64,000 bases of DNA, taken from NCBI GenBank assembly GCA_050179755.1, contig JBFXEV010000001.1:809994-873993 (forward strand), read 5' to 3'. This stretch comes from Candidatus Babeliales bacterium. GTDB taxonomy: Bacteria > Babelota > Babeliae > Babelales > JBFXEV01. The notes under the pieces are model-generated. The model had not been told where the DNA came from. It was given only the letters and a program-made list of their open reading frames with translations, and searched no databases. The position numbers were made by a program, and so were the translations under genes. This document shows, one piece after another, positions 27,458 through 58,700 of the stretch; positions within the stretch are counted from its first letter, which is position 1; each line of letters begins with the position of its first letter.

Positions 27458-27500
27458 ATATAAAACTTAAATTTCAAATTTTCTTATTACATATTTCAGG

Positions 27501-27566: not shown

Positions 27567-27667
27567 ATTTCTAGTAATTTCAATTTATATCTAATATCTT
27601 AGCTTTTTTAACCTAATAAGTATAGAGTGATTATGATATATTCTCAAGGTAAACAAGGTGCCTTACT

Positions 27668-27955
27668 ATGGCTTTAGTAATCGAAATCACTGTGGTCCCT
27701 GCATCGGGGCGGCAAGCTATGCTCTTTGATAAGCTGGGGCGCATAAAATGTTATCTAAAAAGTGCCCCTGAAAAGGGACAGGCAAATGCCGAGCTTATTA
27801 AGTTTATTGCAAAATTACTCCGGTGCCCTCAAGATGATGTGGAGATAATCTCAGGTGAAATTTCTCGTAAGAAACGCTTGAAAATTCATTTGCAATTAAC
27901 GTATGATCAGTTTAAAGAGTTAATGGGCCTTGCTGATCAGAAAAAAATATTTTGA
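27668..27955 (+). CDS. DUF167/YggU family protein
   Basis: V.P.S...APEKGQANAELIKFIAK...VEIISGEISRKK. Confidence 0.88.
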   Translation: MALVIEITVVPASGRQAMLFDKLGRIKCYLKSAPEKGQANAELIKFIAKLLRCPQDDVEIISGEISRKKRLKIHLQLTYDQFKELMGLADQKKIF

Positions 27956-27964
27956 GGTAAAAAT

Positions 27965-33089: not shown

Positions 33090-33372
33090 GAAAAATCCTT
33101 TTTTAAAGCAAGATGGTTATAGGTTCATGTCTCTATTTTATAATAGCATAATACCGGTCACTTGCACAATAGTTTTATTTCAGCCTGAAATTACCCTGAG
33201 GGATTGGTATTTCAAGTCAGTTTTATCTAAGAATTCTTTTTATATTGGAATAATATAAAAAAATAAGTGTAAAATTCGAATAGACATCAAAACTGTTGAG
33301 TTTTATTACTGTTTTGTTATATTGATAATGGGTTTATATTGCTTATTCATATTGATTTAAAGGATTTAAATT

Positions 33373-34281: not shown

Positions 34282-34335
34282 TCAGCAAAAACGATTTGCT
34301 TCAGTAAAATTACTACACCAAAGGTTATTTTTTGT

Positions 34336-34371
34336 GCTTCTACTTAAAGGGATTTAGCTTTAAGTAGAAGC
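34336..34371 (+). terminator. Hairpin, probable terminator
   Basis: GCTTCTACTTAAAG / CTTTAAGTAGAAGC. Confidence 0.6.
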
Positions 34372-34570
34372 TTACATTCGTTTGATTTGACCAAAGTGGC
34401 ATTTTTATTCTGTAGTTAGATTGAATATTTTCTAATAAGTAGTAGGGTTGTTTTTCTGCGTAATAATTCAGATTGAGATAAAAACTATTGATTTGCAATA
34501 CACTATTTTGGTATGCTGTCTGTAGGGGATAATCCTTTAGAATACGTATTTTTAATCAGATAGGAAGCTC

Positions 34571-36193: not shown

Positions 36194-36249
36194 TTCATAC
36201 AATGATCTCTGAAAATTTCAAATAATATAATTTAAAAAATCGCTTAGAT

Positions 36250-36278
36250 TTGACCAATATGCCAGATTTCGCTATTCT
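36250..36278 (+). promoter_or_regulatory. Sigma70 promoter of tRNA-Leu
   Basis: TTGACC-17 bp-TATTCT, about 20 nt before the tRNA. Confidence 0.6.
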
Positions 36279-36297
36279 AAAGCTATAATTTCAAGCA

Positions 36298-36385
36298 GCC
36301 GGGATGGCGGAACTGGTAGACGCACAGGACTCAAAATCCTGCGGGGCTTGCCCCCGTGTCGGTTCGATTCCGACTCCCGGCACCA
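36298..36385 (+). tRNA. tRNA-Leu(CAA)
   Basis: GCCGGGATGGCGGAACTGGTAGACGC...CTCAAAA...variable arm...GTTCGATTC...ACCA. Confidence 0.96.
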
Positions 36386-36585
36386 ACCTGCGCCAATCCA
36401 GCCTACGCTTATAGCTCCGGCGGACAGGGGCTCAGAGTTGGAAACCGCTCATCCTGAGTGAATCGCGAAGCGATTTGTATCGAGGGACGGTTGGCAGGCC
36501 AGTTTACTTTAATGCGTAGGTTGCGCGTCGGAGTTAGCCAAGCGAGCGTAGTGAGCCTGAATTAACGTAGGCGGGCAGTCTTTTG
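36383..36585. repeat. Nested palindromic repeat cassette at the tRNA-Leu 3' end
   Basis: Same element as behind tRNA-Ser(GCT) with two additional inserts (about 36397-36429 and 36434-36487). Confidence 0.85.
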
Positions 36586-36617
36586 GATTTTCTTAATACC
36601 TAAAAAAGATAGATTTT

Positions 36618-36956
36618 ATGAACAACTCCTGCATCTTTTGTAAAATAATCGCCAAAGAAGTTCCTTGCACGCCAGTATATGAAACAGATGACATCCTAGT
36701 CATCAAAGATTTATATCCAAAAGCACCCATTCATTATTTAATTATTCCCAAAAAACATGCAAAAGACATTCAAGATCTTGCACATGATGACATGCATCTT
36801 GGTGCATCAATGATCAAAGTTGCCAAAGAATTATCCGCTCAATTGCCAGGAACAGGTGATTTTAAGTTAGTGGTCAATAGTGGAGAAGGCTCTGGTCAAA
36901 GCATATTCCATCTTCATATGCACTTTGTTGCTGGCAAACAATTGGGTGAAATTTAA
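36618..36956 (+). CDS. HIT (histidine triad) nucleotide-binding protein
   Basis: CIFCKII, P.APIHYLIIPKKH and QSIFHLHMH motifs. Confidence 0.93.
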   Translation: MNNSCIFCKIIAKEVPCTPVYETDDILVIKDLYPKAPIHYLIIPKKHAKDIQDLAHDDMHLGASMIKVAKELSAQLPGTGDFKLVVNSGEGSGQSIFHLHMHFVAGKQLGEI

Positions 36957-36973
36957 TAAGCCAACAAAAAAGC

Positions 36974-38722
36974 TTATTGATGTTTTTCAACGAGCGGTTC
37001 TTGTGGTAAAAATGGTTGCTGTGCGCGTAATCTAATTTGTAAATTATCAAGCCGTTGCTCAAGATGATTAAGAGCAGCAGGTAACGGTAAGCGTTCTTCT
37101 CGCGGCATTGCGGCCGGCTGTTGCTGTTGCAACGCTGCTTGGCGTTGTGCTTCTTGTTCGCGTGCGCGTTGCAAGTCTTCTTGTTGCTTACGCAATGCTT
37201 CTAATCGTTTTGCTTGATCTGCTTTTAATCGCTTATCTTCTTCTTGTCTACGTGCCTTTTCTTCTTTGCGGCGTAATTGGTCTTGTTGTTTGCGCAATGC
37301 TTCAAGGCGTTTTGTCTCTTCTTCTAATCTGCGAGCTTCTTCTTTGAGACGTAATGCTTCTTGCTGCTGCAATTCTTTTGCCTTAAGGCGTTCAGCTTTT
37401 ATTCTTTGTATTTCTTGCTTATACAATTGAGCTCGATCTTGTTGCGTTTTTGTATCTGTTGCCAGTAATAGATCAGTTAAGTGATTTTTTGCCCAATCGA
37501 TAGCATTTCTTTTTAAGTTGTCTTGTAAATCCACATTGGCGCCAATTTCAAGCAACAATTGAACTAATGTAATTAAATCAAAGGTGGTTGCAAATATGAG
37601 TGCGGTTTGGCCACTTTTGTTTTGTTTGTCTACGTTAATACCATGCTCAATAAGAATTCGTGCTATTTTAAGCAGGGCTTCTTGGTCTTTATGTTTTGGA
37701 TATGCTTTGATTGCGATAATTAACGTGTTATTATCTTCTTTATCAAGACTTTCAAGATTAGCGCCTTTATCAAGTAATAATTTTACTGCGTTTGCTTGTC
37801 CAGACTGTGCTGCCAAATGCAATGGCGTTTGCCCGGTTTTATCTTTACTTTCAATTTGAGCACCATGTTCTAAAAGAAAATTAATTATTTCAATGTGGCC
37901 ATTTCTTGCTGCATGATGTAATGCTGTTAAACCATTAATATCTCTGCTATTAATGAATACGGTAGATTTCGGCATTTTTTCAAGTACTTCTTTATTACCA
38001 GCAGCAGCAGCGGCTATAAAGTCTTTAGCTGCAGTTAAAAGATCTCTAATTATTTTATTTTTTTCAGGATCAGCCAAATCTACTGCTTGTTGTTTAAACA
38101 TATTTATTAATTCAATATTAGCTCCTGCATTGAGCAATAATTTAACCACCGATTCTAGATGTGTTGCCGTTGCAAGCATAAGCGCAGTTTGCCTATTATT
38201 ATTTTGCATATCTATGTCAGCGCCTTGTTGAATGAGCATGCGTACCAGTGCTTCAATAATGGGTGATGTTTCTTTAGTGGCTTGAGCGGTAGCTTGCGCA
38301 CGAGCAGCGGCTTTTTCTTCTGCAGTAGCGGTGTCTGGATTTGGTATTATTTTTTTGTAGTGTTCATCTGCTAATTCTGCTTGTTTTCTGGAAAATGATC
38401 GCACTGCTGCAATTAAAGGAGTTTCATTTTGTTTATCAGTAATTGAGGCGTTGGCTCCTTTTTCTAATAAAAAGGCAACGATATTAGTATCTGCTGCGCT
38501 TGCGGCTCTATGTAATGCTGTTTGACCCCCCGGTCCTTTAACATTAACATCAATACCAGAGTTAAGTAACTTTTGCAAAATATCTATTTTGCCTCTGGTC
38601 GCAGCATCAATGAAATTTTGAATTTTTAATTCTTCTGCTGTGGGTGGCTTTATTTGAACTGTTACATCTTGAGCATTACTGACAGAGACGCATATAATAC
38701 ATGCAAGAATTTTTTTTATCAT
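36974..38722 (-). CDS. Secreted ankyrin-repeat protein with C-terminal charged coiled coil
   Basis: GQTALHRAA, GLTALHHAA and GQTPLHLAA repeats; E/K/R/Q-rich tail. Confidence 0.9.
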   Translation of the reverse strand: MIKKILACIICVSVSNAQDVTVQIKPPTAEELKIQNFIDAATRGKIDILQKLLNSGIDVNVKGPGGQTALHRAASAADTNIVAFLLEKGANASITDKQNETPLIAAVRSFSRKQAELADEHYKKIIPNPDTATAEEKAAARAQATAQATKETSPIIEALVRMLIQQGADIDMQNNNRQTALMLATATHLESVVKLLLNAGANIELINMFKQQAVDLADPEKNKIIRDLLTAAKDFIAAAAAGNKEVLEKMPKSTVFINSRDINGLTALHHAARNGHIEIINFLLEHGAQIESKDKTGQTPLHLAAQSGQANAVKLLLDKGANLESLDKEDNNTLIIAIKAYPKHKDQEALLKIARILIEHGINVDKQNKSGQTALIFATTFDLITLVQLLLEIGANVDLQDNLKRNAIDWAKNHLTDLLLATDTKTQQDRAQLYKQEIQRIKAERLKAKELQQQEALRLKEEARRLEEETKRLEALRKQQDQLRRKEEKARRQEEDKRLKADQAKRLEALRKQQEDLQRAREQEAQRQAALQQQQPAAMPREERLPLPAALNHLEQRLDNLQIRLRAQQPFLPQEPLVEKHQ

Positions 38723-41608: not shown

Positions 41609-44600
41609 ATGAAGAAGCACTTATTATATTTTATTCTTTTAGTGTCATCGTACCATGCTCATCTGTATGCAGTGATAAAAGGTTCAACAAGTCAAGTTTC
41701 AATTGAACCAATCTTTCAATTTAAAGCTGCTGATCTTGATAATAAAATACAAGGATTTGCTTGGTTTAAAGATGGATTTAGTTTAGAAAATAATGCAACA
41801 ACGTGTGATTTTGCCTCGGTCTATCCTGTTTCGGGCGTAGTTGCGTTGCATGGTGGCACGCTTAATTTACTTGAAGATCTTATTCTTAAAAATAGTACTA
41901 CGCTTGAAAGTTTTGGCACTATTGTAGGTAATCATTCTCTCTTTGAATTGTGTTCAAGTATAACCGTATTGCCTCCAGATACTGGGGTATTTGAAGATGT
42001 CTATGTGGTATTATCGAATTCGGTGGTGGTACAAGGGCAAATTAATTGCGTTGGTGCAACGGTAATCGATGGCAGGGGCAATACGCTTGATTTACAAGAA
42101 AAAGCATCATTAAAGATTGCGCCACATAGCACACTGCATTTAAAAAACATGATTGTTAAAGGCGTTGGGCTTGATAATATTTCAGGCTTAGATGATTCTG
42201 CTACGTTAATTCTTGATAACGTAACATGGGTGCAATCTGCTGATGTTATTTTTGAATCTGGCGCATTGTGTATACAAAATAAAGTAGAATTCTGCGGTAA
42301 TTATGCATTTAGGCATACAAGCTCCAAACCGGTATCTATAGCGGCACAATCAATGTGGTCGTTACTTGCAAGTATAGATTTAAAAATTGGTAAACATCTT
42401 AATGCCGGTGCCGTTGATCCATTACAATTTCAAGATAATAGTTCCATATTAAAATTATCAAATTGTTCGCTTTTTGTAACTGAAGGTGGATTGCGGTTAA
42501 CAAAAGGCAAGTTGATTTTTGATGAAGAAGTTCATATTGATATGGCATCAACTACTACCATGAACGGTATTATTATTGGTGATGGCGTTGAGAGTGATAA
42601 TGATTTTACGTTACGGTTTAATGCTGGCGTATCAGTAACGCATAAAGGGCATACAGCGTATAACAATGTCAGTCCAGATAAGATTATTGCATTGTCAAAG
42701 AATGCTACCATTATTCGAGATGAAAATTCAAATATTTTTATGGCACGCAATGCGACTATGCCGCCTATGACCTTTGAATCGCTTTCAAATGCAGTGCAGC
42801 CAATACAGCATGCACCGGGTGTGGAGATTGTATATCAAGACGATCAAATAGTATTTCCTGCGGTAGCTTTTGATATTACTGGTTGCCAGAATATGCCCAA
42901 TACCTTTTGTTTAAAGGGTTCTGATGAAATATTTTTTACTAAAGGATCATTGCCCCTTAATTTACAAGTTTCTGGTAAAAATAATTTGATGCATGGTAAT
43001 GGCGGTATCATGGGTCTGCTTTCTTTGCAAGATACTGCTGCAGAATTAATTTGCTCGGTGTTGGGGCCAATAAGTACGTCGCCTCATTTGAATGGTGGTT
43101 CTTTAATTTTAACCGGTGATTTTGCATTGGGGCCAGACATTGTGTTGTCTGGCTCTGGTACGGTGAATCTTAATTCGTTTTGTTTTACCTGTGGTTCAAA
43201 GGATGCAGTCTGGCAAGGGCAATTACTCTGGCAAGGGACTAATGGATCTTTAGAAATACAAAGTCAAGTAACATTACAAGGAACCTGGACTATTGATGGG
43301 CAAGTAACTATTGATGGCAATGGGAATACCTTGGATATTTCTGCTGGCGATATTGTGGTCAATCCTCATGCCAAGTTACTATTGAAAAATATTCGACTTA
43401 TAGGGATTAAAGGTTCAAATATACGCTGTGTTGATGATACTGGTAAGTTATCGCTTTTAAATGTAATTTGGGTGCAAACAGATGATGTGCTTTTTGATAA
43501 GGGCTCTTTACAGTTTGTTGATGAAGTTGATTTTATTGGTTCTTATACCTTTGTATATGATAGCTCAGTAACAAGTACCATAGCTGTTAAGTCTACGTTG
43601 CAAATAGGCAACGGCATGCAGTTTTCAATTGGTCGTACCCATAAAGAGGGGGCAGCACCTCTCTATTTTGAAGATCGCACGAGTACGCTCTCGCTTGAAA
43701 ATTGTGCTTTACAGGTAACGGGTTTTGGTTTGCCATTGGCGCGTGGTCGCGTGTTGTGTAGTAGAGACGTTACCATTGATATTTTGTCTACAGACACAAC
43801 AAATGGTATTGAACTTGGCACTGGCGCGCCAGATGACGACATGATTTTTGAATTTTATCCTGGTTGTGTTGTTCGTTTTGTGGGTGGTCACGTGGTTTAT
43901 AATGTTACGCGGCCTGATAGTGTTGTATCTCAATCTACTACTGCCAAATTAGTGCGCGGTGCAAAAAACGTATTTTATATGAAACGCAATATTTTGCTTT
44001 CAAATTTAACAATTGATGCTTCTATATTATCAGTTACCCACGTGCCCGATGATGTATCGTTTGACTTTGAAAATTGTGAATTTGTCTTGCCGGCAGGCAA
44101 AGTTGTGGTGAGCGGATCTCGTTACAATGCCTACACTAATGTATTGAAGAATGGTGACTCTCTTTTTATAACCTCTGGTGTAATGCCTATGGCAACTGTT
44201 GTATTGGGTAAAGGTACTAGCATAGTAGGCAATGGTAGCTTGGGAGGGCCCGTAGTGTTTGCCTCACCTGAATCAGAACTTGTTCTTGCACTAGATGGTT
44301 TGGTGAGTAAAGATATTACTCTTAACGGCGGTGTTCTTACTTTAGGCCAAGATACGCACTTTGCAAGCGGTGCTGTTATTACTGATTCAGGAACGGTTAA
44401 TGTAAGTAATTATCGTATGCAATTAACATCACAAGAAATAGTGTGGCAGGGTGATATTACGTGGCAAAGTACTAATGCAATAATTTCATTAAATGCGGAT
44501 GTTGCTCTTGCAGGTTCCTGGATTGTGCAAGGTAATTGTACGTTGCAGGGTAATGGTAATGTACTTGATTTGCGAGCGGGTGGTAGCATAGAAGTTGCGC

Positions 44601-46570
44601 CAGGCTCTGCGTTAAAATTAGTTAACGTGCGTATTATAGGCGTACATGATAGTAACGTACGTTGTGCGGATGATACAGGATCACTCATTCTTGATCAAGT
44701 GGTGTGGGTGCAAACAGGGAACGCAACGTTTGATCATGGCAGAATTCAGATTATTGACGAAGTAGACTTTTTAGGTTCGTATACTTTTTCCTATCAGAGC
44801 ACACAATCAAGTTTTATTCATAATGACTCTACGTGGCATATTACTGACTTAATGCGATTTACTCTAGGCAAGCAATCAGTGCCAGAAGCACAAAATCCAT
44901 TATTGTTTGCAGGTCAAACAGCAACGCTTTCTTTAGATAATTGTACTATTGCAATTACGGATGCCGGGTGGGATTTGCTCAAAGGATGTATTAAGTATAA
45001 GCGTAATGTTGATATAGAAGTGCTTTCTACAAGTTCGGCAGCAGGTGTATTTCTTGGCAATGGCATGCGTGAAAACGATCCGCTTGTATTTTTTGATCCT
45101 GGTTCAAATGCTCGTTTTGTAAAAGGGCATATTATTTATAATATTGTAAATCCTGCAAACTTGCATTCTGATTCCACGTCCGCGCAAATGCAGCGGCTAG
45201 CGCAAAGTCACTTTGTGATTAAGCAAGACGTATATCTTAAGAATTTTACGGTGGATGCAAGTCCCTATGCAATTACCGAGGTTGATGTGGGTAAGCGATT
45301 TGCCTATAAAAATTGTATTTTTAGTTTGCCAAATGGTCGCGCCGAAGTAACTGCCTCGCGGTATAATGAAGTTTCAAATATTCTTTTTGCAGATGACTTA
45401 TTATTGCTTAGATATGGGGCATTCCCTATGGCAACATTAGTGGCCGGGCAAAACGCTATGATTGCAGGAACGGGTGATGTGGTTGCTCCTCTAGTATTTG
45501 TCAATCCCACAGCAACGTTGTTATGTGGATTTAGTGGTTCATTAGGAGCCAACGTTATGTTAAATGGAGCACGTTTTATAGTAATGAATGACGTTCATTT
45601 TGCAGGAGATCATCAATTTATTGGGGATGGCACTGTGGTGGTAGGTGATAATCGTTTATCTTTTGGCCCAAAAGATGCCACATGGTCTGGCAATCTAGTA
45701 TGGCATGCTGACAACGGCAATATTGATATAAAGTCTAATATTTCATTAAATGGAACTTGGACGTTTAGTGGATCAAGTTGCTTGCTTGATTGTAATGGCA
45801 ATACGTTAGAGCTATTAGAAAATGGCAAACTTATTATTAATGATAATTGTACGTTACATATAAAGAATGCTCAAATAAAGGGAATACGTGGCACTAATAT
45901 TTGCGCAATAGAAGATAGCAGCAAGCTTATTCTTGAAAATGTCACGTGGGTACAACAGGACGAGTATCAATTTGAACATGGATCACTTATATGGCAACAA
46001 GATGTTGTTATGGAAGGTGGCATTTTTAATTATAGATCTAATCAAACAAGTCATGTTGCTGACCATTCTTGTGTGTGTTTGGATCAAGATTTTATTTTTA
46101 ATTATGAACCAGAAAATGGTGATACCAATTTGATAGCATTAAACGATGAGTCATCTATGCTCGAGCTTAATGGTGCAATAATACGTGCGCCCTATGGTAT
46201 TGCCTTTACTCAAGGAACGTTTATATGTAAAAAAAATGCTACGCTTATTTCTTCCCACGAGCAAGGCATTACGTTTGGAACAGGCAATGCTGATAATGAT
46301 TGTACGGTAATGATATATAGTGGCGTACAGTTGGTTGTTGCTGAAGGTGCTTTGAACTATAACAATAGGGCACGCTCCTCATGGCAGTCAGGCAATAGTT
46401 TATCAACAGTGTATTTTGCAGATACTACAACATTAAATGTATATGCTACGTTAGATCTTGGTGGCGGAGAATTTATGTTTGGTAACCATACGTTGCTTAA
46501 TCGAGCAGCTGATGCTGATATAAAAGGATCAATAACCTTACTTGGGGAGTTATCTTTTGGTACTATCTAG
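41609..46570 (+). CDS. Large secreted beta-solenoid-like repeat protein (about four copies of a ~413 aa module)
   Basis: Signal peptide; the G(N/R)GN.L(D/E) motif recurs near 42070, 43315, 44550 and 45790, each followed by L.L.N...G....NI.C.DD...L.L..V.WVQ. Confidence 0.85.
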   Translation: MKKHLLYFILLVSSYHAHLYAVIKGSTSQVSIEPIFQFKAADLDNKIQGFAWFKDGFSLENNATTCDFASVYPVSGVVALHGGTLNLLEDLILKNSTTLESFGTIVGNHSLFELCSSITVLPPDTGVFEDVYVVLSNSVVVQGQINCVGATVIDGRGNTLDLQEKASLKIAPHSTLHLKNMIVKGVGLDNISGLDDSATLILDNVTWVQSADVIFESGALCIQNKVEFCGNYAFRHTSSKPVSIAAQSMWSLLASIDLKIGKHLNAGAVDPLQFQDNSSILKLSNCSLFVTEGGLRLTKGKLIFDEEVHIDMASTTTMNGIIIGDGVESDNDFTLRFNAGVSVTHKGHTAYNNVSPDKIIALSKNATIIRDENSNIFMARNATMPPMTFESLSNAVQPIQHAPGVEIVYQDDQIVFPAVAFDITGCQNMPNTFCLKGSDEIFFTKGSLPLNLQVSGKNNLMHGNGGIMGLLSLQDTAAELICSVLGPISTSPHLNGGSLILTGDFALGPDIVLSGSGTVNLNSFCFTCGSKDAVWQGQLLWQGTNGSLEIQSQVTLQGTWTIDGQVTIDGNGNTLDISAGDIVVNPHAKLLLKNIRLIGIKGSNIRCVDDTGKLSLLNVIWVQTDDVLFDKGSLQFVDEVDFIGSYTFVYDSSVTSTIAVKSTLQIGNGMQFSIGRTHKEGAAPLYFEDRTSTLSLENCALQVTGFGLPLARGRVLCSRDVTIDILSTDTTNGIELGTGAPDDDMIFEFYPGCVVRFVGGHVVYNVTRPDSVVSQSTTAKLVRGAKNVFYMKRNILLSNLTIDASILSVTHVPDDVSFDFENCEFVLPAGKVVVSGSRYNAYTNVLKNGDSLFITSGVMPMATVVLGKGTSIVGNGSLGGPVVFASPESELVLALDGLVSKDITLNGGVLTLGQDTHFASGAVITDSGTVNVSNYRMQLTSQEIVWQGDITWQSTNAIISLNADVALAGSWIVQGNCTLQGNGNVLDLRAGGSIEVAPGSALKLVNVRIIGVHDSNVRCADDTGSLILDQVVWVQTGNATFDHGRIQIIDEVDFLGSYTFSYQSTQSSFIHNDSTWHITDLMRFTLGKQSVPEAQNPLLFAGQTATLSLDNCTIAITDAGWDLLKGCIKYKRNVDIEVLSTSSAAGVFLGNGMRENDPLVFFDPGSNARFVKGHIIYNIVNPANLHSDSTSAQMQRLAQSHFVIKQDVYLKNFTVDASPYAITEVDVGKRFAYKNCIFSLPNGRAEVTASRYNEVSNILFADDLLLLRYGAFPMATLVAGQNAMIAGTGDVVAPLVFVNPTATLLCGFSGSLGANVMLNGARFIVMNDVHFAGDHQFIGDGTVVVGDNRLSFGPKDATWSGNLVWHADNGNIDIKSNISLNGTWTFSGSSCLLDCNGNTLELLENGKLIINDNCTLHIKNAQIKGIRGTNICAIEDSSKLILENVTWVQQDEYQFEHGSLIWQQDVVMEGGIFNYRSNQTSHVADHSCVCLDQDFIFNYEPENGDTNLIALNDESSMLELNGAIIRAPYGIAFTQGTFICKKNATLISSHEQGITFGTGNADNDCTVMIYSGVQLVVAEGALNYNNRARSSWQSGNSLSTVYFADTTTLNVYATLDLGGGEFMFGNHTLLNRAADADIKGSITLLGELSFGTI

Positions 46571-48623
46571 GGATATATGGTTTATCTGCTCGCTGTTTAT
46601 ATTTATACCCATGCTGCATGCGGTTTCTATTGGCTCGAATACAGCATTAAGCCAGCAAGCACTTGCCAGTTTTCCTTTTTCAGATACAGATAATCAAATG
46701 CTTGGTTTTGCAGCATTTGTAAATGGTTTTACTTTGACTGGTGGCGGCAACTGTATATTTAATTCGTTGTATCCTATTGGTGGAACGGTTACTCTCAATG
46801 GCGGTACGCTTTCATTAAGCAAGGATCTTACGTTTCAAAAAAATATAACGCTTTATAAAGGCGGTATATTTAAGGGAAATGGTAAAAAGATTACTTTTCT
46901 GGATACCGATGGTTTGCAATTGCCTGCGTCTGGTACAGATCTTTTAAGTATGGCGTACCTTACACAGTATGATACGGGTGCATCAGTTATTGCATGTGAT
47001 TGGTCGCATGATAATCACACTATTGCCATTGCCAATAGCTCTTCTGCCTATATTGATGCGTTTAATTTTGTTCCTAATGCGCTTACTGCTGGAGGAATTT
47101 CATCTGCTGCCACTACTAATTTTTTGTGTGTTGCATGGCATCCTACGCTTAACTATCTGGCAACTGGTAGAAAACAAGGCTCATCAACAAAGAATATACA
47201 ATTATGGCAGTATAATCCATCACTTGATACGTTTACCTTACTTGATCAGGAAGCTCAAAATAAAGATATTACTGCTGTTGCATGGCATCCATCAGGCAAT
47301 TATCTTGCTGTAGCCACTGCAAATGGTCAAGGGATTATCATATATTCTTTAGTGAATAATGCTTTGACTTATGTGTCTGAAGTAGATCTTACACCAAGCA
47401 GAAACATTTCTAATGCACTCAGCTGGGACAGTACAGGAACGTATTTGGTTGCAGGCACTGCATCATCGGGTGCAAATAAGAGCTATGAAGTATTAGTATA
47501 TTCGTTTAATGGTTCTGTGCTTACATTAAATACCTACCTGGATCTTAATACGTTAGTTAATGCTGTAGCGTATTGCCCTACTTCAACGTATATTGCTGTT
47601 GGCCTTAATTCTGGTTCAGATAGATTTCGTATGTATGCGCACAACCCGCAAACAGGAACACTTACTAAAGTTTCATCGATTAATTTAGGCATATCACTTG
47701 CAGTGCTTGCAGCAGATTGGAGTCCAGACGGTAAGTATATTGCATTTGGTACTGCAAAAGGTTCAATTACCGAACTCAATGTGTATGCTTTTGATGCCGA
47801 TGAAGAATCGTTAACCCTTGTTGCTTCTTTTCATATGTTAGGAGCTGTTAATACGCTTAAGTGGTCGTCAGATGGCAGCTATCTTGCTGTTGGCGATAGT
47901 GTTGATAATTTATCAGTGTTTGGACTTTCGACTGCTGTTATTTTTAATGGCGTATTTTTAGAATGTAATTCAAACGTTACCTTTAACACACAAACTATAT
48001 TTCAGGGCGTTTGCATGATTGAGGGCAATAATCATACGTTGCAGTTTGCAAATCAAGGGTCATTACAAGTTGCAAGCGGGGCGTCATTAACACTTAAGAA
48101 TCTGACGCTGAGCAATATAACTGCATCTTCGTTCTATTGTGCCGATGGTACAGCAACTATTAATTTTAATAATGTTGAACTTAATTTGACTACCAATGAT
48201 TATACTTTTTCAAATGGTGCATTTAATGTAATTAATAAATTACGCATACAAGGTTCGCATACATTTAATTATCAATCAAACCAAATAAGCACCATTAAAG
48301 CTGCAGCAACATTGTTTCTTGATGGAGTAACATTGAACTATAATCCTTCTATTAGCGCAAATAATTTGCTAGCATTTGCAGATTCTACTGCATCTTTAGT
48401 CTTGCGTTCAGCAACATTTCAAATTTCAAATAAAGGCTTACAGTTAACTAAGGGGCATATTGAGATAGATGGCAAGTGTTATATTGTAAATAGCGGCACA
48501 CAAGCGGCGCAGGGCTTGTTGCTTGGTGATGGTAATTCTGCTGCAAATAATGTACTCGTGCGTATATTGCCAGAAGCGCAGTGTGTGGTAAGTTCTGGAT
48601 ATGTTGTGGATAAGAGCGTATGA
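46557..48623 (+). CDS. Secreted protein: beta-solenoid module with an inserted WD40-like propeller (ORF track starts it at 46542)
   Basis: GGGGAG RBS before TTG 46557; shared GFA.F..GF.L N-terminus; blades VAWHPSGNYLAV, WSPDGKYIAF and WSSDGSYLAV. Confidence 0.85.
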   Translation: MVLSRDIWFICSLFIFIPMLHAVSIGSNTALSQQALASFPFSDTDNQMLGFAAFVNGFTLTGGGNCIFNSLYPIGGTVTLNGGTLSLSKDLTFQKNITLYKGGIFKGNGKKITFLDTDGLQLPASGTDLLSMAYLTQYDTGASVIACDWSHDNHTIAIANSSSAYIDAFNFVPNALTAGGISSAATTNFLCVAWHPTLNYLATGRKQGSSTKNIQLWQYNPSLDTFTLLDQEAQNKDITAVAWHPSGNYLAVATANGQGIIIYSLVNNALTYVSEVDLTPSRNISNALSWDSTGTYLVAGTASSGANKSYEVLVYSFNGSVLTLNTYLDLNTLVNAVAYCPTSTYIAVGLNSGSDRFRMYAHNPQTGTLTKVSSINLGISLAVLAADWSPDGKYIAFGTAKGSITELNVYAFDADEESLTLVASFHMLGAVNTLKWSSDGSYLAVGDSVDNLSVFGLSTAVIFNGVFLECNSNVTFNTQTIFQGVCMIEGNNHTLQFANQGSLQVASGASLTLKNLTLSNITASSFYCADGTATINFNNVELNLTTNDYTFSNGAFNVINKLRIQGSHTFNYQSNQISTIKAAATLFLDGVTLNYNPSISANNLLAFADSTASLVLRSATFQISNKGLQLTKGHIEIDGKCYIVNSGTQAAQGLLLGDGNSAANNVLVRILPEAQCVVSSGYVVDKSV

Positions 48624-49696
48624 TAATGAAGTGGATCACTCCTGTTTGGGTAGTATTTTTTTTATGTTTTTCAGCTCGTGCTGTTATTTATGGTTCATTA
48701 ACAGCAGTGTCCCGTCAAGCGCTCATTACCTTACCTGCAAATGATGCAACAAATGAATTGCGTGGATTTGGTGCTTTTGAAAACGGTTTTACGCTAACGA
48801 ATGCTTCAACAGCCTGTTTATTTACTTCATTATTTCCTGTCTCGGGGCCCATTAGTTTAAATGGTGGTACGCTTACCTTAAATCAAAGTATGGTACTTGA
48901 TTCAGATGCTGATATAAAATCGGCAGGAATTATTGTAGGTAATAATTATAAGTTAGTGCTACCGGCTAAAATGAGTTCGTATACTCTACCTTCTACCACG
49001 CTTACTTGGGGCTTAACATTACATAGCGTAAAGTTATGTTTGCAATCAGATCTCGTGTTTAATGTACCGGTTATTTTTCAAGGCACGTGCGAAATTCAAG
49101 GAAATGGTTATTCGTTAACGCTTGCGCATGCAACAGGCATTAGTATTGCTAGCGGCGCATCTTTATTAATGAAAGACGTAATTGTTAAAAATGTTTCAGG
49201 CACTAAAATTGGCTTTGCAGCAACAAGTTCATTCTTAAAGATACAAGATGTGGTATGGTGCTTGAATGGTAATACCACGCTATCTACTGGCTACTTTAAT
49301 CTTATTGGTAATTGGTATATCAATGGTCCGTATTCGCTTTCCTATACCAGTGCGCAGACAAGCACAATCCTTTCTAATGGGCAGTTATGTATGGGCTTTG
49401 GCTCTACATTAAATTATGCTCCATCGGTGAGCGTGCAAAATTTACTACTATTTTCAGATGCTACTGCTAAGTTGCTTTTACATGGTGCAACGTTATCAGC
49501 TTCAACGGTTGGTATGCAGCTTACGCGTGGTTCATTAATTTGTGATGGTAAATCGTATATTACAAGTTCTGGAACTACTGCAGCGACAGGCATTAGTCTA
49601 GGTGGTGCAAGTTCTGGTGATGATGTGACCATTGAAATTTTGCCGGGCGCAAGCGTTGAGGTTGCAGGTTTTGTGGGGTATAAAAATTTTAATTAA
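48620..49696 (+). CDS. Secreted single-module beta-solenoid protein
   Basis: Start overlaps the upstream stop (ATGA); GFGAFENGFTL...FPVSGPISLNGGTL; MQLTRG...GISLG. Confidence 0.85.
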   Translation: MIMKWITPVWVVFFLCFSARAVIYGSLTAVSRQALITLPANDATNELRGFGAFENGFTLTNASTACLFTSLFPVSGPISLNGGTLTLNQSMVLDSDADIKSAGIIVGNNYKLVLPAKMSSYTLPSTTLTWGLTLHSVKLCLQSDLVFNVPVIFQGTCEIQGNGYSLTLAHATGISIASGASLLMKDVIVKNVSGTKIGFAATSSFLKIQDVVWCLNGNTTLSTGYFNLIGNWYINGPYSLSYTSAQTSTILSNGQLCMGFGSTLNYAPSVSVQNLLLFSDATAKLLLHGATLSASTVGMQLTRGSLICDGKSYITSSGTTAATGISLGGASSGDDVTIEILPGASVEVAGFVGYKNFN

Positions 49697-49739
49697 TTGA
49701 TATATTAAAAAAGTATAATAATCTTACCTTGAGAGTGGT

Positions 49740-52700
49740 ATGAATAAAAAAAGAGCTTGGAGCATACAGCATATCTTTGGCAGCTTTGCCGTCAATTTAC
49801 TCGTAAGTACTGTTATCTATGCGGCATCCTTTAACTGTGATAGTCCTAACTCCGCTTTAGTGCTTACTCCTGGTGCCACATTCAATATTGTAAATCCTAT
49901 TACTAATTTTAATGGTACGTTAACTATGCCAACCGAATCAACCGTTTCTGGCAGTACTATTACGTTTGCAGGCGGTTATTTACAAGGTACAGGAAATCGT
50001 GCATCGATTACCGGTCTGTATACACCAAGCACTAATCAATTGTCTATGACGGGTAATCATACGTTTAATGCAACGCCAGGCCTTTCGTGGGAACAACTTG
50101 CCGTAAGTGGTACAGGCAACTTGCTTGAAGGTCAACCCACATTTGTAAGCGATATCGTTCTTGCAAATGCAAGCACTGCACTTACTATTGCAATTCAAAA
50201 TACACTAAATGTTAATATAGCGCTTGCAGGTGGTGCGGTAACGCTTGGTAGTGATTTGCGTTTTGCAGATGGCAAAGGTTTTACGGGTAATGGTACAGTT
50301 AATTTAACAAACAATGGTTTAACATTTGGCGGTACGCCACTTGTATGGTCAAATAATATTACGTGGAATAATGCTGGTAACCTGCGTTTACATGGTAAAG
50401 TAAAAGTAACAGGAACTCATACGTTTTCTGGAGTGAGCGCGCTGAATGGAAATGGTAATATTCTTGATCTTTCGGGAGGTGGCTCACTTATTGTGCCGGC
50501 ATCATCAACACTCTATCTTTCTGATCTAGTAATCAAAGGTTTGGGTACAGGTGGTGGCACCATTTTGCTTGCGGCGCCTACTTCACAACTTCGTCTTTCT
50601 CATGTAACGCTTGAGCTCGTAGGGAACTTAACTACATCTCAAGGTTCTATATATATTGAGGGTCCGTCAACAGTTGTTGTTAATAATTTTACGTGGACGG
50701 TGAATTCATCTGGGTTATTGATAGTAGATGGTGTAACTCTTTGGACAGATTCTGTTGGCGCATCATCACCGGGAACGATTACCTTTGGCAGTCCACTTTC
50801 AACATATCTATCGCTTGTTGCAACCGGGACTATTAAGAATGCAGGTTCTGGCTCGGTAACTACTGCGGCTTTTAATGCTTTGAATGCTCGTTTAACAACA
50901 GATGAAACAAATATTACTACACTTCAAGGTCAAATGACTGCCGTAAATAGTAATGTGGCGTTAGTGCAAGGTCAAATGAGTACGGCTAATTCAAATATTA
51001 CTGCTGCTCAAAGTAATATTACAACGCTTCAAGGGCAAATGACCACCGCTACTACTAATATTACTGGAGCACAGGGTAGTATCACAGCACTGCAAAATCG
51101 TGCGGCTGTCGATGAAAGTGCGATTAGTACGTTACAGACAAATATGACAGCTGCACAAAATACTATTGCTTCTGCTCAGTCTAATATCACTGCTTTGACT
51201 ACGCGCATGACTACTGTAGAAGGTAATATAAGTACCGCACAAGATAATATTGCGTCATTGCAAACTAACGTGACGAGTGCACAAGCATCTATTGGCACGT
51301 TGCAAACAAACGCAGCAAATGATGAAAGAAATATTACGGCATTGCAAACAAGCGTTGCCGGAGCGCAAACGTCTCTAACAGGTTTAGGCACGCGTATGAC
51401 AGCTGCCGAAACAAATATTACAGGTGCTCAAGGTTCTATTGGCACATTGCAGACAAATATGAGTGCTGCACAGGGAAATATTACAGCCTTGCAAACTCGT
51501 GTAACTGCAGACGAGAATACGCTTGCCACGGTGCAATCAAATATAACGGCAGCGCAAACAAGTATCACCGGTCTTGGCTCTCGTATGACAACGGCAGAAA
51601 ATAATATTACTGCGTTGCAGTCACGAGTAACAGCTGATGAAACTTCTCTTAGTGGATTGCAAACAAGCGTTACAGCAGCTCAAAATGCCATCGCTACGAA
51701 TCAATCCAGTATTACCGCATTAACCACACGAGTTACTAGTGCAGAAAGTACTATTCATACAGCCCAATCAAATATTACAACATTACAATCAGGCATGACT
51801 AGTGCACAAAACTCGATTGGTACCTTACAAACCAAGCTAACAGCAGATGAAGCCAATATTGCTTCTTTGCAAACAAATGTTGCTGCCGTTCAAACAAGTA
51901 TTACAGGATTAGGCACTCGCGTGAATGCTGCCGAAAGTACTATCACTTCAGCACAAAGTTCACTTACTGCGTTGCAAACAAGTCTTGCATCCTCTCAGGA
52001 TGCCATAACTACATTGCAAACCAATGCAACGGCTGATGAGCAGAATATCGCAACGTTGCAAACTAACATGACGGCAGCACAAAATGATATTACTGCTCTT
52101 GGCACCCGCATGACGAGTGGTGAAAATAATATTACAAGTTTGCAAGGTTCTGTTGCCACATTACAGACAAATGTAACTAATGATGAAAGAAATATTGCCA
52201 CATTACAAACAAACATGGCAAATGCGCAAGGCACTATTACCGGGCTTACCACGCGCATGACAACAGCTGAAGGGGCGATTGTTAATTTGCAAACAAATGC
52301 AGCTTCAGATGAACGTAACATTAGCACACTACAAACAAATGTGACGGGTGCTCAAAATGCTATTACTAGTTTGCAAGGATTAGTTTCTACGTTACAGGCA
52401 AATGTAGCATCCGATGAAAGATCTATTGCAGCATTACAAACAAACATGGGGGGTGCGCAAAGCGCCATTACTACACTGCAGCGCAATGCGCTTATTAATG
52501 AAGGAAACATTCTAACATTACAAACAAATCTATTTTCAGCTCAAAATAATATTAATGTTCTCTTGCCGCGTATGACGAGCGCTGAAAATAATCTAATAAA
52601 TTTACAATTAAATATAGCAACTGCTCAAGAATCGTTGAATCTTTTACTTAGTGAATACCATAAGGTAGTGCATGTAAACGGTCATATGGTGTTTGATCAT

Positions 52701-55700
52701 GCACGAATGCTCAGAGAACATGGCGCACTCATATTTGAATTTTGTCCTGGTCGCCTAGATGATTTACCGACAATTACCTTTGTAAAAAATACACAGCTTG
52801 AAATGCCAAGGAATGCGCACCTCGTGTTTAAGGGACATGGCACCGTGATTTTAAAAGATGGTGTTCAGCTTACCTTGAACAGTGAAGTTGCAAAAAATAA
52901 ACCAACGTTAGTGTTTGATGATAATGCTACGTTGCGTGTTGCAAAAAATGGGCAAGCTGCAATAGCGGGCCGTGGTACCATTTGCTTGCAAAATGGCGGT
53001 TCATTTGAATTGACAAAGAAATCTCAATTAGTGCTTGGCACAAGCTCACGTGATGTGATTCACGTGGAAATGAAACAATTTGGTGCATTATCATTGCAGC
53101 ACCGTGATGCAGAAATTGCTTTTGCACATGGCCAGTTTGATATTCTTGCTGATTTGTGTGGTGTAATAAATATTGCGCGAGGTCGGTTATGCTTGAATGC
53201 GCGGCATCAAACTGAAGCGCCAGGGCGTATTAAACATTTTGCGTTGCGAGGTAATTCACTATTGCATATTGATCAAGGTCAGTTGGTGTTGGGTGATAAC
53301 AGTGATAATAGTAAAACATTTATTGATTGTACTTCAGGCCTGATTCAGGGTCATGGCAGAATGCGTTATCTCTCGAGCAATGCTCTTATAGACATTCAAA
53401 ATAATCCATTTATAGGCAGTTATGATATCATAACAATCTTTATGAAGCTTGGGTATATTGTGCCAGATGAAAAATCGCAGCCTTCTATTCTTGTGCATTC
53501 ATTTGATAAACTGGCAGCATTTTTGCCAGTGCGCGATGGTAGCATTGTGCGTCTTGAGCCAGGCGATCACGCAATTACTTATAGAGATGATGGTATTTTT
53601 GGATATGATCGCGATAAACGCTTATTTAGTATTAATCGTGATGGTACAAGAAATCGTATTGGCGATCTTGAACCGCTTGGCTGTTGCGATTTAATTACGC
53701 AAGCAGAATCTAACATTGCCAATTTAGAAGCGTTAACAAACCAATTATCAGGGCGTGTGGTTTCAGCTGAAAGTGGTATTTCTGTTTTGCAAACACGCGC
53801 AACTAACGATGAAGCAGCAATAACCCAGTTGCAGGTAAATGCGCAAGCAGCGCAGACAAATATTACGGGATTACAAAGCAGTATCTCCACTGTTCAACTT
53901 GGTCTTGCATCCGCGCAAAGCTCAATTGCTTCGTTGCAAACAAATGCGACAGTAGATGAAAGCCATATTACAACTTTACAAGCTAATATGGCGATAGCAC
54001 AAAATAATGTTGCGGGACTTACTACGCGCATGACTCTGGCTGAGGGTGGGTTGGGTTCAGCGCAAAGTGCTATCAGCGCATTGCAATCGCGAGCCACAAC
54101 GCACGAGAGTTTGTTGAGTGCGTTGCAATCTAATATGACTAACGCCCAAACAAATATCACGAGCCTAGGTTCTCGTATGGCCACTGCGGAAGGTGCGATT
54201 TCTTTACTGCAAAACAATATGAGTGGTTTGCAATTAAATGTTACAGGATGTCAAACAAATATTGCTGCGCTTGCTGCCAGAGCATTAATCGATGAAAGTA
54301 ATATTAGTGCGTTGCACGATGGATTTGCAACAACACAAACAGCTGTTAGTGGTCTTGGCATACGCATGGCAAGTACAGAAGGGGCTGTGACTATTTTGCA
54401 AAATAATGTGAGTACGTTGCAAGCTGATGTTATTGCCACGCAAAGCGTATGTACCGCACTTCAAACGAGTGCTCTTGCTGATGAGCATGCTATTTGGGCA
54501 TTACAAAGTAATATGACTATGGCACAAAGTAGTATTAACGTTCTTGATGCGCGTGTTACTAGTGTTGAAGAGGATTTGCAAGTTGCACAAGGGGCACTTG
54601 GTAGCCTGCAAACAAACCTTGCTCATGATGAAAGTGTTTTGTCGATTTTACAAGACAATGTTGCAGGCACACAAAGTGGCATTAGCTTACTTCAAACACG
54701 CATGGGAGTAGCAGAAAACACTTTGACGATTGCACAAGCACATATTGCCGCGTTATTGAGTAATATGCTTTCTGCCCAAGGTGCCATTAGCACGTTACAA
54801 ACAAATGCTTTAGCTGATGAGCATGCAATTGCTGTATTGCAAAATAATATCAGCAGCGCACAAACAACTATTGGCAGTTTATCAACACGGATGAATCAGG
54901 CAGAGGGAGCACTTACGGTAGCGCAAGGCAGTATTATTCATTTACAAACAACAATGACCACGGTGCAAAACTTGGTCGATACGCTTGACCTTGCACGAGA
55001 ATTAAATGAGCAAGTTATTAGAGCATTACAAACAGATGCTGTAACTAAAACAACACAGATTCAGGGATTAGAATCGCAAATTGATTCTTGTCAGTCTAAC
55101 ATTCAAGCTACTCAAACAGCTTTGAGTGCTTTGCAGCAACGAGTGACTATCGATGAAAGCAATTTAGTAAGCATAGAGTCTGGTTTGCAAAGTACCGTTA
55201 ATGCTCTTTCCGATATTACTGATCGTGTGACGATGGCAGAAGTTGATATTCAAATTACGGTAACAACGCTTGCTGCGTTGCAAACAACTATGACCATTGT
55301 TGAACATGATTTAAGTGCTGCGCACGCAAATATACTTGCATTGAACGGCCGCATGGCCAGCGCCGAGCATGAAATTGATATGTTGCAATCGGCGACGCAT
55401 CTCTTGGATACTCGATTAATTGTTGCAACACAATCCATAGATCTTATAAATGAGAGAATGGGCATAGCAGAGCAAGATATTGTGTTACTTGCAACGGCAA
55501 CGGCAGAAATTGCAAATCGCGTAATGGTTTTAGAAAATACTACCATTGCCTTTAATCAAGAACTTGATCAGTTAGTGACAGGTTCACAGTTGCAGCAAAA
55601 TTTATTGTCAATTAACTATCGGTTATATAACGCGGAAGCACACATAACCACCGCTCAAATTGATATTGCTGATGTAAAAAATCGTGTTGATAATGCTGAA

Positions 55701-58700
55701 ATGTTGCTTTCTCTTTTTGATACTACAACGCTTGCTTTTGCTAATCGCATGCTGCAGATTGAATCTGTGGATTTTGATTTCCAAAATCAGATTGATGCAC
55801 TCAACACAAGTACTTTGGTGCTTCAACAAGAAATTAATGAACTTATTCAACGTAACCAGGCAGCGGATGGTTTGCTTGAAACATATAGTCTTCAATTTGT
55901 GCAAGATGCTCTACGCCTTGCAATGCTCGAAACTGCAACGCAGTATCTAGAGGCGAGTTTAGATGTGGGGCAAAGTGATATGCAAGCCATTGTACAACGA
56001 GTTTCTGTTCTTGAATCAACTGATAATGAGCTTGTTCAAGCAGTAGATTTACTTAATGCAAGTACATACATCTTGCAGCAAGAGTTAGATGTATTGAGCG
56101 GGCAGATGATTAACGCACAAAATGGCCTTGGAGCGTTGCAAACACAGCTTAATGCTGATGAGAATGCCATTGGTGTATTGCAAACGACTCTTTCTCATGC
56201 ACAAAGTACTGTTATGGGCCTTGCTAATCGAATAAGCAGCGCTGAAACTCATATTGCGATCGATGAGCAACGCATGCTTGCTATGCAAGTTAACATGGCT
56301 GATGCACAAACTACTATTCTAACACTTACCAGTCAAATGGCAGGAGCGCAAGAAGCAATTATTGCAGCACAAGCGCACTTGTTTAGTCATGATATTGCGT
56401 TAAATCTAGTGCAAAGTGCACTGGTTGATACACAAACTGCATTGAATGTACTTCACATGCAAAATGCTCTAGATGAGCAAGCTATCGCTGCATTGCAAGT
56501 TGACATGCTTGCTACGCAAACGCATATTACGGATCTTACTATGCGTAGTGATCTTACAGAAAGTGCGTTAGCACAACAGCATGAAGCGTTAGCTGCAGTG
56601 CAACAACAGGCGTTGATTGACGAACATGCTCTTGCTGTAGTGCAATCGACTTTGAGTACTGCACAAACGGCTATTGACGTGTTATCAGGGCGCACGAGCA
56701 ACACAGAAAGTGCATTGGTTGGTGTGCAGGGTGCTTTGAGCATTGTGCAAACCAACATGCAAGTTGCGCAAAGCACTATAAGTACTTTACAAGCCAATGC
56801 ATTAACTGATGAAGCAAGTATTGTTCAATTACAAACGAATATGATCGATACGCAATTAGCTATTGCAGGTCTTGATACGCGTGTGGGCAATGCACAAGAT
56901 GATGTTACTAGTATTCAATCAGATGTGCTGGTATTACAAGTAACTATGACCAGTGTACAACATGATATTGCGCAACTGCATAATGAAAATGCTCTAGAAC
57001 AGAATATGCTTGGAACATTGCAAATGCAATTGCTTGAAAGTCAAACGCATATTATAGAGCTCACAACAGATATGCTTCAAGCAGACTTTGCCATTGGTTT
57101 GTTGCAAATGCAAAGAGCAGATGATGAGCTAGCAATAGCTGCATTGCAATCAGGTTTAGTGGCAGCACAACAGACTGAAGAGCTTTTAGATAATCGTTTA
57201 GTGCGTGCACAAAATGCTCTTGATATGTTAGATTCGGCAACGCAGGCATTAAGTTCTCGTGTAGATTCATTAGAATTAGTTGATAGAGAACACAACGAAT
57301 TATTTGAATTGGTGAGTGCAAGCACGGGTAGTTTACGTGAATTTGTTCAAGTGCTCGACCAGCAACTGAGCAGTGCGCAGGCACATATTATGCAGCTAGA
57401 AACGAGTACGCAAGCATTAGCTGCACGTGTTGGTGACATTGAAATTATCGATACTCATATGCAGCAGCAGATTGCAATGCTTATTACAAGCACGCAAGCG
57501 TTGCAACAAGAAATTACTGGATTAATGAGTGATGTATTACACCTTCAAGACAATGTAATGACATTGAGTCAGCAAACGGGAATGGCGCAGCAAGATATTA
57601 TGACGTTGCAATCTTGTTGTACGGAACATGATGCGCGTCTTATTGCGTTGGAACAAGCAGGCATTAGTTTTAATGAGGAATTGGATATGCTTGTTTCCAA
57701 CACTGAGTTTCAACAGAATTTGCGATCACTTAATTATAGGCTACAACTTGCAGAAACAAATCTGAGCGGGGCGCAAACAGACATTGAATTGCTTGATGGT
57801 CGTATGCTTATTGCGCAAGATGTACTTTCAAATTTGGTAACAGCAAGTGCTGTATTTGATACTCGTTTACTTACGTTAGAATCTGCTGATCGAAGTTTCC
57901 AAGATCAGGTTGATTTGCTCTATGCACACACAGGAGCATTACAAGTTTTAGTTGACGGCCTGAGTCAAAGAGTTGATAGTGCAGAGTCTGCAGTGCATAT
58001 GTTAGATACGGCAACCCAAGCACTTGATAGTCGTATTGCTACTATTGAAATTACAGATGCACATGTGCAAACTCAGCTTGATGCATTGCATACAAGTACG
58101 GTGCACGCACAAGTGCAATTTAATGATCTTGGCATGCATATGAATCAGGCACAAACAATGTTAACCGCACATGGCAATCGTTTAGATATGTATAGTGATA
58201 CGCTTGATCTGTTAAGTACGGCAACACACAGCCTAGATATGCGCTCGCTTACTGCACAAACAAATCTTGATGCCTTAGTTGTTCGTCTGACTGCAGATGA
58301 AACAATTGCTGCGCAATTATCACATGACGTTGAATTGCTTTCATCAAGTACTTCGTTCTTGCAAACAACATTAAATGAATTAGCGTTGCGCACAACAAGT
58401 TGTGAGATGACGCTTTCTCAATTAGCAGATGCGCAAAATCAAGATGAGGTTGCCATCGCCATATTGCAAACTGGTATGAGCGCTGCACAGGATACACTTA
58501 CAGGCCTTTCAGGTAGAACGGCACAAACAGAATTTGCACTTACTGATGCACAAGCAAGTATCGAAACGCTTGAAACGAGTGTTATTACCGCGCAGGGTGG
58601 TATTGCAATTTTGCAAAATCAAATGACGCTTGCACAATCTAATATTGCGAACTTGCAATTTAATGCGCACATTGATGAAAATATGCTGAGTGTATTGACT

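Follow-up and report, generated by a model that had tools for sequence, protein, structure and literature searches.

What do four closely spaced genes of a Babeliales (Dependentiae/TM6) bacterium do, given that all of them draw on one and the same protein module, and which of their parts is put on display and which, if any, does the exporting? The genes, here called A, B, C and D, lie in a 64,000-nucleotide stretch (G000:C1:809994-873993; the window, below) of genome G000, which is 1.525 Mb in one contig. The answer proposed here is that they constitute the upstream part of a Babeliales surface-fibre or adhesin locus, split and type-V-like, in which DomX (our name for a ~315-residue domain that occurs twice in D) and a separately encoded putative barrel just downstream form the candidate export or anchor unit for D. 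We give this reading a probability of about 0.55. The principal genes are the following.

Gene A, 41609-46570, plus strand: 1653 residues; signal-like N-terminus and four tandem, predicted beta-helix modules.
Gene B, 46542-48623, plus strand: 693 residues from a TTG start; module split by a WD40 propeller.
Gene C, 48620-49696, plus strand: 358 residues; signal-like N-terminus, then a single bare module.
Gene D, 49740-64000 and on to window-equivalent 64247 (247 nt past the window), plus strand: 4835 residues in full.
Barrel gene, window-equivalent 64262-65794 (G000:C1:874255-875787; L019:356-1888), plus strand: 510 residues; beyond the window.

A and B overlap by 29 nt, B and C overlap by 4 nt, and a gap of 43 nt separates C from D; the open reading frame (ORF) coordinates thus agree with the initial annotation of this DNA, which had described four close genes on the same strand with two overlapping junctions and one 43 bp gap. 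The same annotation's signal-like N-termini on all four genes are also found, as judged by eye and hydrophobicity alone (best 10-residue Kyte-Doolittle windows of 2.15-2.65), with the proviso that the segment in B depends on the TTG at 46542 (46542-46610). The database version of B, at 670 residues, begins 23 residues later, at a conserved post-signal motif and without the signal-like segment; its start is therefore probably placed too late and the protein annotated too short. Promoter and terminator scans yielded site numbers fewer than, or no more than, those in shuffles.

D, the giant of the set, follows its signal-like N-terminus with a truncated module (the head), a coiled coil, an internal DomX, a long second coiled coil and a C-terminal DomX.

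D head, 50109-50705, plus strand: residues 124-322, equivalent to module positions 42-241; last third of the module absent.
D coiled coil 1, 50850-52589, plus strand: residues 371-950; hydrophobic periodicity of 3.5/7.0 residues and matches to coiled-coil families.
D internal DomX, 52716-53651, plus strand: residues 993-1304; independent E-value (i-E) 2.6e-62.
D coiled coil 2, 53670-63269, plus strand: residues 1311-4510; heptad periodicity of 3.5/7.0 residues.
D C-terminal DomX, 63303-64000 and on to window-equivalent 64238, plus strand: residues 4522-4833.

Heptad coiled coil totals ~3780-3800 residues of D. DomX makes up the last ~270-400 residues in all 13 DomX proteins examined; 14 DomX sequences gave no Pfam match and no YadA-type anchor, head or stalk family, a profile search of PDB sequences gave nothing below E 0.2, and hhalign set the probability of a relation between module and DomX at 25%, that is, no demonstrable homology. 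In relatives, D-like proteins carry a truncated head of this kind (residues ~110-330, equivalent to module positions ~37-254), followed by a middle part and, at the C-terminus, DomX; residues 1-1304 of D match this layout exactly. What remains of D resembles another stalk-plus-DomX unit, probably added by fusion.

Fifteen bases after the stop codon of D there starts the gene for a protein with a signal-like N-terminus and a tail of alternating hydrophobic residues ending in Phe. The family to which it belongs is consistent in these traits: after the alternating hydrophobic pattern the final residue is Phe in 23 and Trp in 1 of 26 members, and a hydrophobic signal-like segment stands at the N-terminus of 25 of the 26, the other ORF being cut at the edge of its locus. 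A signal and an aromatic C-terminal beta-signal, the features of an outer-membrane barrel that is a substrate of the barrel assembly machinery (BAM), are accordingly both present in the family, whose members also carry N-terminal extensions of variable length (~90-240 residues). The G000 protein has no Pfam match at E<=1, PF13557 included, and the barrel profile found nothing below E 0.2 among PDB sequences; among 24 family members one matches PF13557 (E 0.002) and one OMP_b-brl (E 0.012), while the true PF13557 genes of G000 sit elsewhere in its genome. The Atlas model of the barrel protein aligns to clusters bearing PF13557 (Phenol_MetA_deg) with template-modelling (TM) scores of 0.67/0.81 and 0.68/0.84 over 380-388 residues. 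In our reading the protein is an outer-membrane barrel whose family is undescribed and which is, by its predicted fold, COG4313/FapF-like. A complex prediction for barrel and DomX scored 0.00, which counts neither for nor against docking. The barrel gene is followed by two signal-bearing genes, for a 478-residue coiled-coil protein and a 196-residue protein (L019:1913-3943; G000:C1:875812-877842), and further downstream by sbtA and then a P-II gene.

The coupling of DomX with the barrel is seen most directly in other genomes. In a sample of 41 (G000 and 40 relatives, from 21 GTDB families) the barrel is matched in 19 and the DomX profile in 19, and they coincide in 18; G016 and G029, with one of the two each, have it as a weak match (4e-4 to 5e-4). 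For 25 of the 33 listed DomX matches a barrel match follows 24-3971 bp downstream on the same strand, and the opposite order, barrel before DomX, does not occur among strong DomX matches. The arrangement that recurs in the 20 loci that were fetched is a D-like protein (880-1320 residues), then none to two genes, and then the barrel, and module genes like A, B and C adjoin it; in two of these loci (G021 and G040) the gene order is that of the G000 locus. Homologs of the module genes are strongly clustered in relatives, in keeping with the initial annotation. At G029:C6:33800-36989 a 1470-residue ORF has a weak DomX-like match, and 2.5 kb downstream of it a 580-residue ORF is weakly matched by the barrel profile; DomX-barrel pairing may extend to more distant paralogs.

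A congener of G000 (G001) provides the complementary case. All four genes are retained there in synteny, at identities of 50, 55 and 67% for the first three and 27% over 3563 residues for D, next to neighbours (EamA, 86%; OPT, 72%; ABC transporter genes, 71-77%) that are better preserved: A-D diverge faster than the genes around them (27-67% identity vs 72-86% in the flanking transporters). Its D (5362 residues; G001:C1:368771-384859, loci L050/L051) has three truncated-module heads, at residues 125-334, 565-742 and 1070-1247. There is no DomX match in this D and no barrel gene after it; genome-wide, nothing in G001 matches the barrel protein or the DomX profile, and the barrel profile finds only weak partial matches to unrelated ORFs of ~580 residues (best E 1.2e-5, 24 bits). 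What does follow D here, as in G000, is a coiled-coil protein: it has 770 residues and is 35% identical to the 478-residue protein of G000. Since DomX and barrel are absent together, their coupling is supported; since A-D persist with neither DomX nor a close barrel, the module proteins must in this organism be independent of that barrel.

The module that the four genes have in common is ~340 residues long. With C, the bare module, as phmmer query, four copies are found in A (residues 20-354, 452-759, 898-1175 and 1306-1586; i-E 1e-38 to 3e-17) and two halves in B (residues 18-119 and 466-688; i-E 1e-23 and 3e-43), with an insert between them; a single copy in the 358-residue gene and about four in the 1653-residue gene is also how the sequence had first been interpreted. 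The boundaries within A and B are the following.

Module copies of A, plus strand: residues 6-355, 452-765, 899-1180 and 1312-1586, each then a ~100-residue connector or tail.
Parts of B: N-terminal part of the module, residues ~11-133; propeller, residues 132-465; C-terminal part of the module, residues 466-693.
WD40 propeller in a loop of the predicted B beta-helix, 46935-47936, plus strand: seven-bladed.

A module profile, made from an alignment of 15 single-module proteins, was searched against the full set of 2262 ORFs in the genome; with default filters, A, B and C are its sole matches at E<=0.01. The composition of the D coiled coil trips those filters, so that D escapes; once they are switched off, module positions 42-241 are matched by D residues 124-322 at E 1.8e-20 (Z=2262), which bears out the earlier observation that the head of the giant resembles part of the A repeat (copies 2-4 of A match the D head at 5e-15 to 6e-22). 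The D head is a truncated module, because the match stops at module position 241 and the last third is absent. Among the copies in A and B, the first ~40-70 module positions are present only in the first copy of A and in the N-terminal part of B. It is the region directly behind the signal-like segment that is best conserved, with 18 of 37 invariant or near-invariant columns falling in residues 25-105 of C. Within it lies the most conserved stretch of the whole family, ~40 residues (window 41672-41790 in A, 46620-46740 in B, 48683-48800 in C) that consists of a Gly-Ser pair and then ~20-30 residues on conserved Asn, Gly and Phe positions; in the model of B, post-signal residues 21-34 are of low confidence. 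A possible role for this stretch is that of a linear motif for sorting or docking. Proteins of 224-254 residues whose module is reduced to its C-terminal half (positions ~130-357) occur in four relatives (G004, G040, G008 and G024), where they adjoin DomX-barrel pairs; in some genomes, therefore, the module exists as separate halves.

Chance repetition was rejected as the source of the shared module, the E-values excluding it, and so was recent tandem duplication of DNA, Tandem Repeats Finder having found 0 arrays in 41000-64000; the repeats of A are old and, judged from sequence, visible at the protein level only. The module has no match in Pfam or NCBIfam, and the best E-value in a profile search of PDB sequences is 0.57, so that its placement outside characterised families, already proposed when the locus was first inspected, holds. 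The family is large: a search of 1.84 billion cluster representatives with C as query gives 1709 proteins at E<=1e-3 (487 at E<=1e-30), with 1 to 14 matched stretches each, and the homologs that have names are hypothetical or WD40 proteins from 'Candidatus Dependentiae' or 'candidate division TM6'. Lengths among 150 listed representatives bunch near 355, 690, 835, 1250, 1660 and 2080 residues, classes that correspond to one copy, one copy with WD40, and two to five copies; 4-copy proteins of ~1650-1680 residues recur. A, B and C fall in these bunches and are therefore members of recurrent length classes (for B by itself there are 53 homologs at E<=1e-10, mainly of ~680-790 residues). Tested directly in 201 sampled genomes of the phylum, which all carry the label of one order, the module is present at E<=1e-5 in 67; its spread by family is uneven, with 23 of 23 genomes in one family and 0 of 28 in another.

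The insert of B is secure. It scores 61.7 bits against PF00400, for a cut-off of 27, and an AlphaFold2 model of B made from a 39-row alignment (mean pLDDT, the predicted local distance difference test score, of 89.1; <50 in the post-signal residues mentioned above) shows residues 132-465 as a seven-bladed WD40 propeller, for which VIA-align finds WDR61 (3ow8_A) at Z 38.0 and a root-mean-square deviation of 1.9 over 288 residues, and Foldseek finds propellers in the PDB at E ~1e-14. Domain match and model together agree with what had been said of the ~690-residue gene, that a WD40-like propeller is inserted in its module. In the same model the flanks, residues 35-131 and 466-693, form 14 and 26 short strands (mean lengths of 3.6 and 4.8 residues) with almost no helix. 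Searches with the B model (Foldseek against the PDB, wide VIA-align and Foldseek viral) returned propeller matches only and none for the beta-helix part; since propellers fill these searches, the fold assignment of the module rests on the ESM Atlas model of C (predicted TM score 0.81), a single-sequence AlphaFold2 model of C being unusable (mean pLDDT 41.2). The Atlas model aligns to clusters of the Ag43, AIDA, pertactin and Pmp autotransporters with TM scores of 0.56-0.68 by query over 263-308 residues, in support of a right-handed beta-helix like that of autotransporter passengers, a likeness of fold and not homology. Because it resembles the rods of exported passengers, the module looks, on these predicted structures, like the displayed part rather than an export unit.

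No classical partner for such passengers turned up in G000. None of A, B and C matches a Pfam barrel family, and the PF03797 autotransporter barrel is over the cut-off nowhere in the genome (best 16.3 bits vs 26, in an unrelated place), in agreement with the initial annotation, which saw no recognisable autotransporter barrel at the end of any complete gene. A genome-wide search for ShlB/TpsB-type proteins likewise found none over the cut-off (best 15.8 bits vs 22.7, and that inside BamA). The genome does have two secretins and two Omp85 proteins, one of which is the BamA in the window (five POTRA matches and Omp85, 2155-4785). The barrel profile weakly matches other ORFs of ~600 residues in G000, including one of 595 residues. 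A second locus of large protein plus barrel was observed at G000:C1:8158-19625 and 25435-28335: a signal-bearing protein of 1445 residues with a weak DomX-like match is directly followed by a 599-residue ORF that ends in Phe and is matched by the barrel profile at 3.5e-8, and a second Omp85-family gene (966 residues) is nearby. Large protein plus barrel is on this showing a recurring theme in G000.

How does the locus compare with known systems? The sequence hallmarks that define type Va, Vb and Vc autotransporters are missing from it, and so are those of the Pmps. With the type Va passengers (Ag43, AIDA-I/TibA, pertactin, Pmps) it shares a Sec-type signal and a right-handed beta-helix rod of similar size and shape, as seen in the models of C and B and in their hydrophobic N-termini, again as a likeness of fold only, and the passenger-like part of D lies N-terminal to the element that adjoins the barrel. 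In contrast to that class, there is no sequence similarity (no Pfam, NCBIfam or PDB match), no fused PF03797 barrel and no autochaperone domain; the candidate barrel here is a separate gene of another family that pairs with DomX rather than with the module, and the modules here stand in tandem and can hold an inserted WD40 propeller. Membership of type Va was rejected, PF03797 being absent from A, B, C and the window part of D. The Pmps are an expansion of paralogs in an intracellular bacterium, and in this the module family is like them; membership was rejected because neither PF02415 nor PF03797 is matched at E<=1 in A-D. Two-partner secretion (TPS; type Vb: FHA/FhaC, EtpA/EtpB) provides the precedent of a beta-helical exoprotein and a separately encoded outer-membrane barrel in one operon, and there is a further likeness in the N-terminal region being the best conserved part of the module proteins. 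The barrel here, however, pairs with a C-terminal and not an N-terminal domain and is not Omp85/ShlB-like, and with no TPS (haemagglutination activity) domain in A-D and no ShlB match over cut-off, type Vb was also rejected. Trimeric autotransporter adhesins are ordered, from N to C, as head, coiled-coil stalk and membrane-proximal C-terminal element. D has the same order, and very long fibres are common to both (type Vc: YadA, BadA, AtaA), but the barrel is here a separate protein, and the search for YadA anchor, head/neck or stalk families in the window part of D and in the 14 DomX sequences was negative, so that type Vc was rejected too.

FapF is the remaining comparison. According to the text available of PMC5557850, it is an autotransporter-like barrel of 12 strands, extended at its N-terminus into the periplasm, and it secretes substrates that Sec has exported. 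The likenesses to FapF and the COG4313/PF13557 barrels are a stand-alone barrel gene beside a presumed substrate, a predicted barrel fold that aligns to PF13557-bearing clusters, and N-terminal extensions (variable in the barrel proteins here). The differences are that the barrel protein itself lacks a PF13557 match, as detailed above; that no FapD-type peptidase or amyloid subunits are among the Pfam matches of the locus; and that the presumed substrate here is a giant folded fibre, as against a disordered amyloid subunit. By analogy, the closest working model for the locus is a type V or a Fap system.

The steps would be these. All of the proteins would cross the inner membrane by way of Sec, as their N-termini suggest, and BAM would insert the barrel through its C-terminal Phe signal. 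DomX would dock on or in the barrel, which is what gene pairing and joint absence point to, and the barrel would export D, anchor it, or both, head outward, much as an autotransporter does but with the barrel as a separate gene. A, B and C would be exported right-handed beta-helix rods in three formats (four in tandem, WD40-inserted, bare); speculatively, they serve in host contact or are secreted, and their way out of the periplasm would be a different one, for which the type II secretion system (T2SS) or a reader of their N-terminal motif could account. A bolder and more tentative version, which we would not expect to hold in full, has a stand-alone COG4313/FapF-like barrel reading DomX so as to export and anchor head-tipped coiled-coil fibres up to half a micrometre long, a display route previously unrecognised, with module proteins docking on the heads or exiting by the N-terminal motif, and all of them together making a variable host-contact coat.

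Several points weigh against the proposal that DomX and barrel export or anchor D. The D-type fibre of the congener manages with neither, so that the pair is not essential for such fibres. The barrel fold is derived from a comparison of two predicted models together with the C-terminal motif, and barrels of the COG4313 type are known as small-molecule channels, so that this one could be a mere co-travelling channel. Eight of the 33 DomX matches have no barrel match within 4 kb downstream (one is the internal copy in D, three are weak, at E 3e-5 to 5e-4, two lie near a contig start, and two have no barrel match on their contig), and since the relatives are kin, the counts of pairing overstate independence. 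Finally, nothing joins A, B and C physically with either D or the barrel, and their link to D is inferred.

The alternatives are weighed against the same body of evidence. A, B and C, and perhaps D, might be soluble effectors sent into the host cell or its vacuole, for example by the T2SS, with WD40 propeller and beta-helix binding host proteins, no appendage formed and the barrel an unrelated channel. Beta-helical pectate lyases are classical T2SS substrates; the genome has its two secretins, and a T2SS-F/PilC-type gene is in the window. The congener, which keeps A-D with no DomX and only weak partial matches to the barrel profile, and the rapid divergence of A-D relative to their neighbours would both suit effectors, and signal-bearing WD40, ankyrin and leucine-rich repeat (LRR) proteins are read as secreted host effectors in Dependentiae in the available text of PMC4378268, PMC4776705 and PMC6561590. 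We nevertheless consider this improbable: a protein of 4835 residues with ~3800 in coiled coil is unlikely as a soluble effector, and effectors would leave to be explained both the order of DomX then barrel (25/33) and the clustering of module genes with that pair in many families. Less probable still is the proposal with which the initial annotation began, that the module is itself an assembly or export unit that brings propeller or fibre cargoes to the surface. It is true that the module is the sole element common to all four genes, that its N-terminal third after the signal is the best conserved (18/37 columns in residues 25-105) and that this part is confined to the first copy of multi-copy proteins, as an N-terminal secretion domain would be. 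The predicted fold, however, is that of a passenger-type beta-helix; many proteins of the family consist of modules only (1-14 matched stretches) and are thus often without cargo; the D head lacks the first ~40 positions and the last third; and a motif-reading partner is missing, with no TpsB/ShlB-type protein over the cut-off. It is DomX and the barrel, outside the coordinates that the annotation covered, that behave genetically like an export or anchor unit, and that part of its interpretation is not supported.

A further alternative, to which we also assign little weight, makes D a tether of coiled coil that spans or lines the periplasm, held to the outer membrane by the barrel, with the beta-helix proteins as structural components of the periplasm, the whole being an envelope scaffold. 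Fast divergence and expansion of copy number fit an interface exposed to selection better than they fit a housekeeping scaffold. There is also the matter of size: at a coiled-coil rise of 0.148 nm per residue, the ~3780 residues when extended would come to ~0.55 micrometres. Such a length exceeds the 350-400 nm of C. destructans particles as given in the available text of PMC6561590, a source that, on the other side, mentions dark periplasmic material seen in the same organism. The scaffold can also claim that all of the proteins have a Sec-type N-terminus only and no known outer-membrane export signature, and that the coiled coil of FapF is located in the periplasm (PMC5557850, in its available text). 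The split type-V-like locus is the best supported of these readings, and the broader claim of the initial annotation, a candidate undescribed surface system, stands with it: a conserved outer-membrane-barrel gene belongs to the locus, which makes it look like such a candidate.

The remaining genes of interest in the window lie upstream. Four ankyrin-repeat genes (226, 302, 540 and 582 residues) directly precede the locus at 32409-38722, the T2SS-F/PilC-type gene already referred to is at 27965-29164, and an LRR protein is encoded at 19045-20457.

Dependentiae are a widespread phylum of obligate protist parasites, and to our knowledge it is not known how they attach to and enter their hosts. 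The locus offers candidates for host contact: a large and fast-evolving beta-helix family, a giant fibre and a genetically coupled barrel. The genome papers, in the text available of PMC4776705 and PMC6561590, refer only to type IV pilus/T2SS genes and to unnamed 'surface antigens', and our search of the literature, which did not cover supplements, found no description of the module family. If it is true that the barrel exports or anchors the fibre, the logic of type V and Fap secretion would come to include a further, new family of barrels together with a novel docking domain, in a phylum without classical autotransporters.

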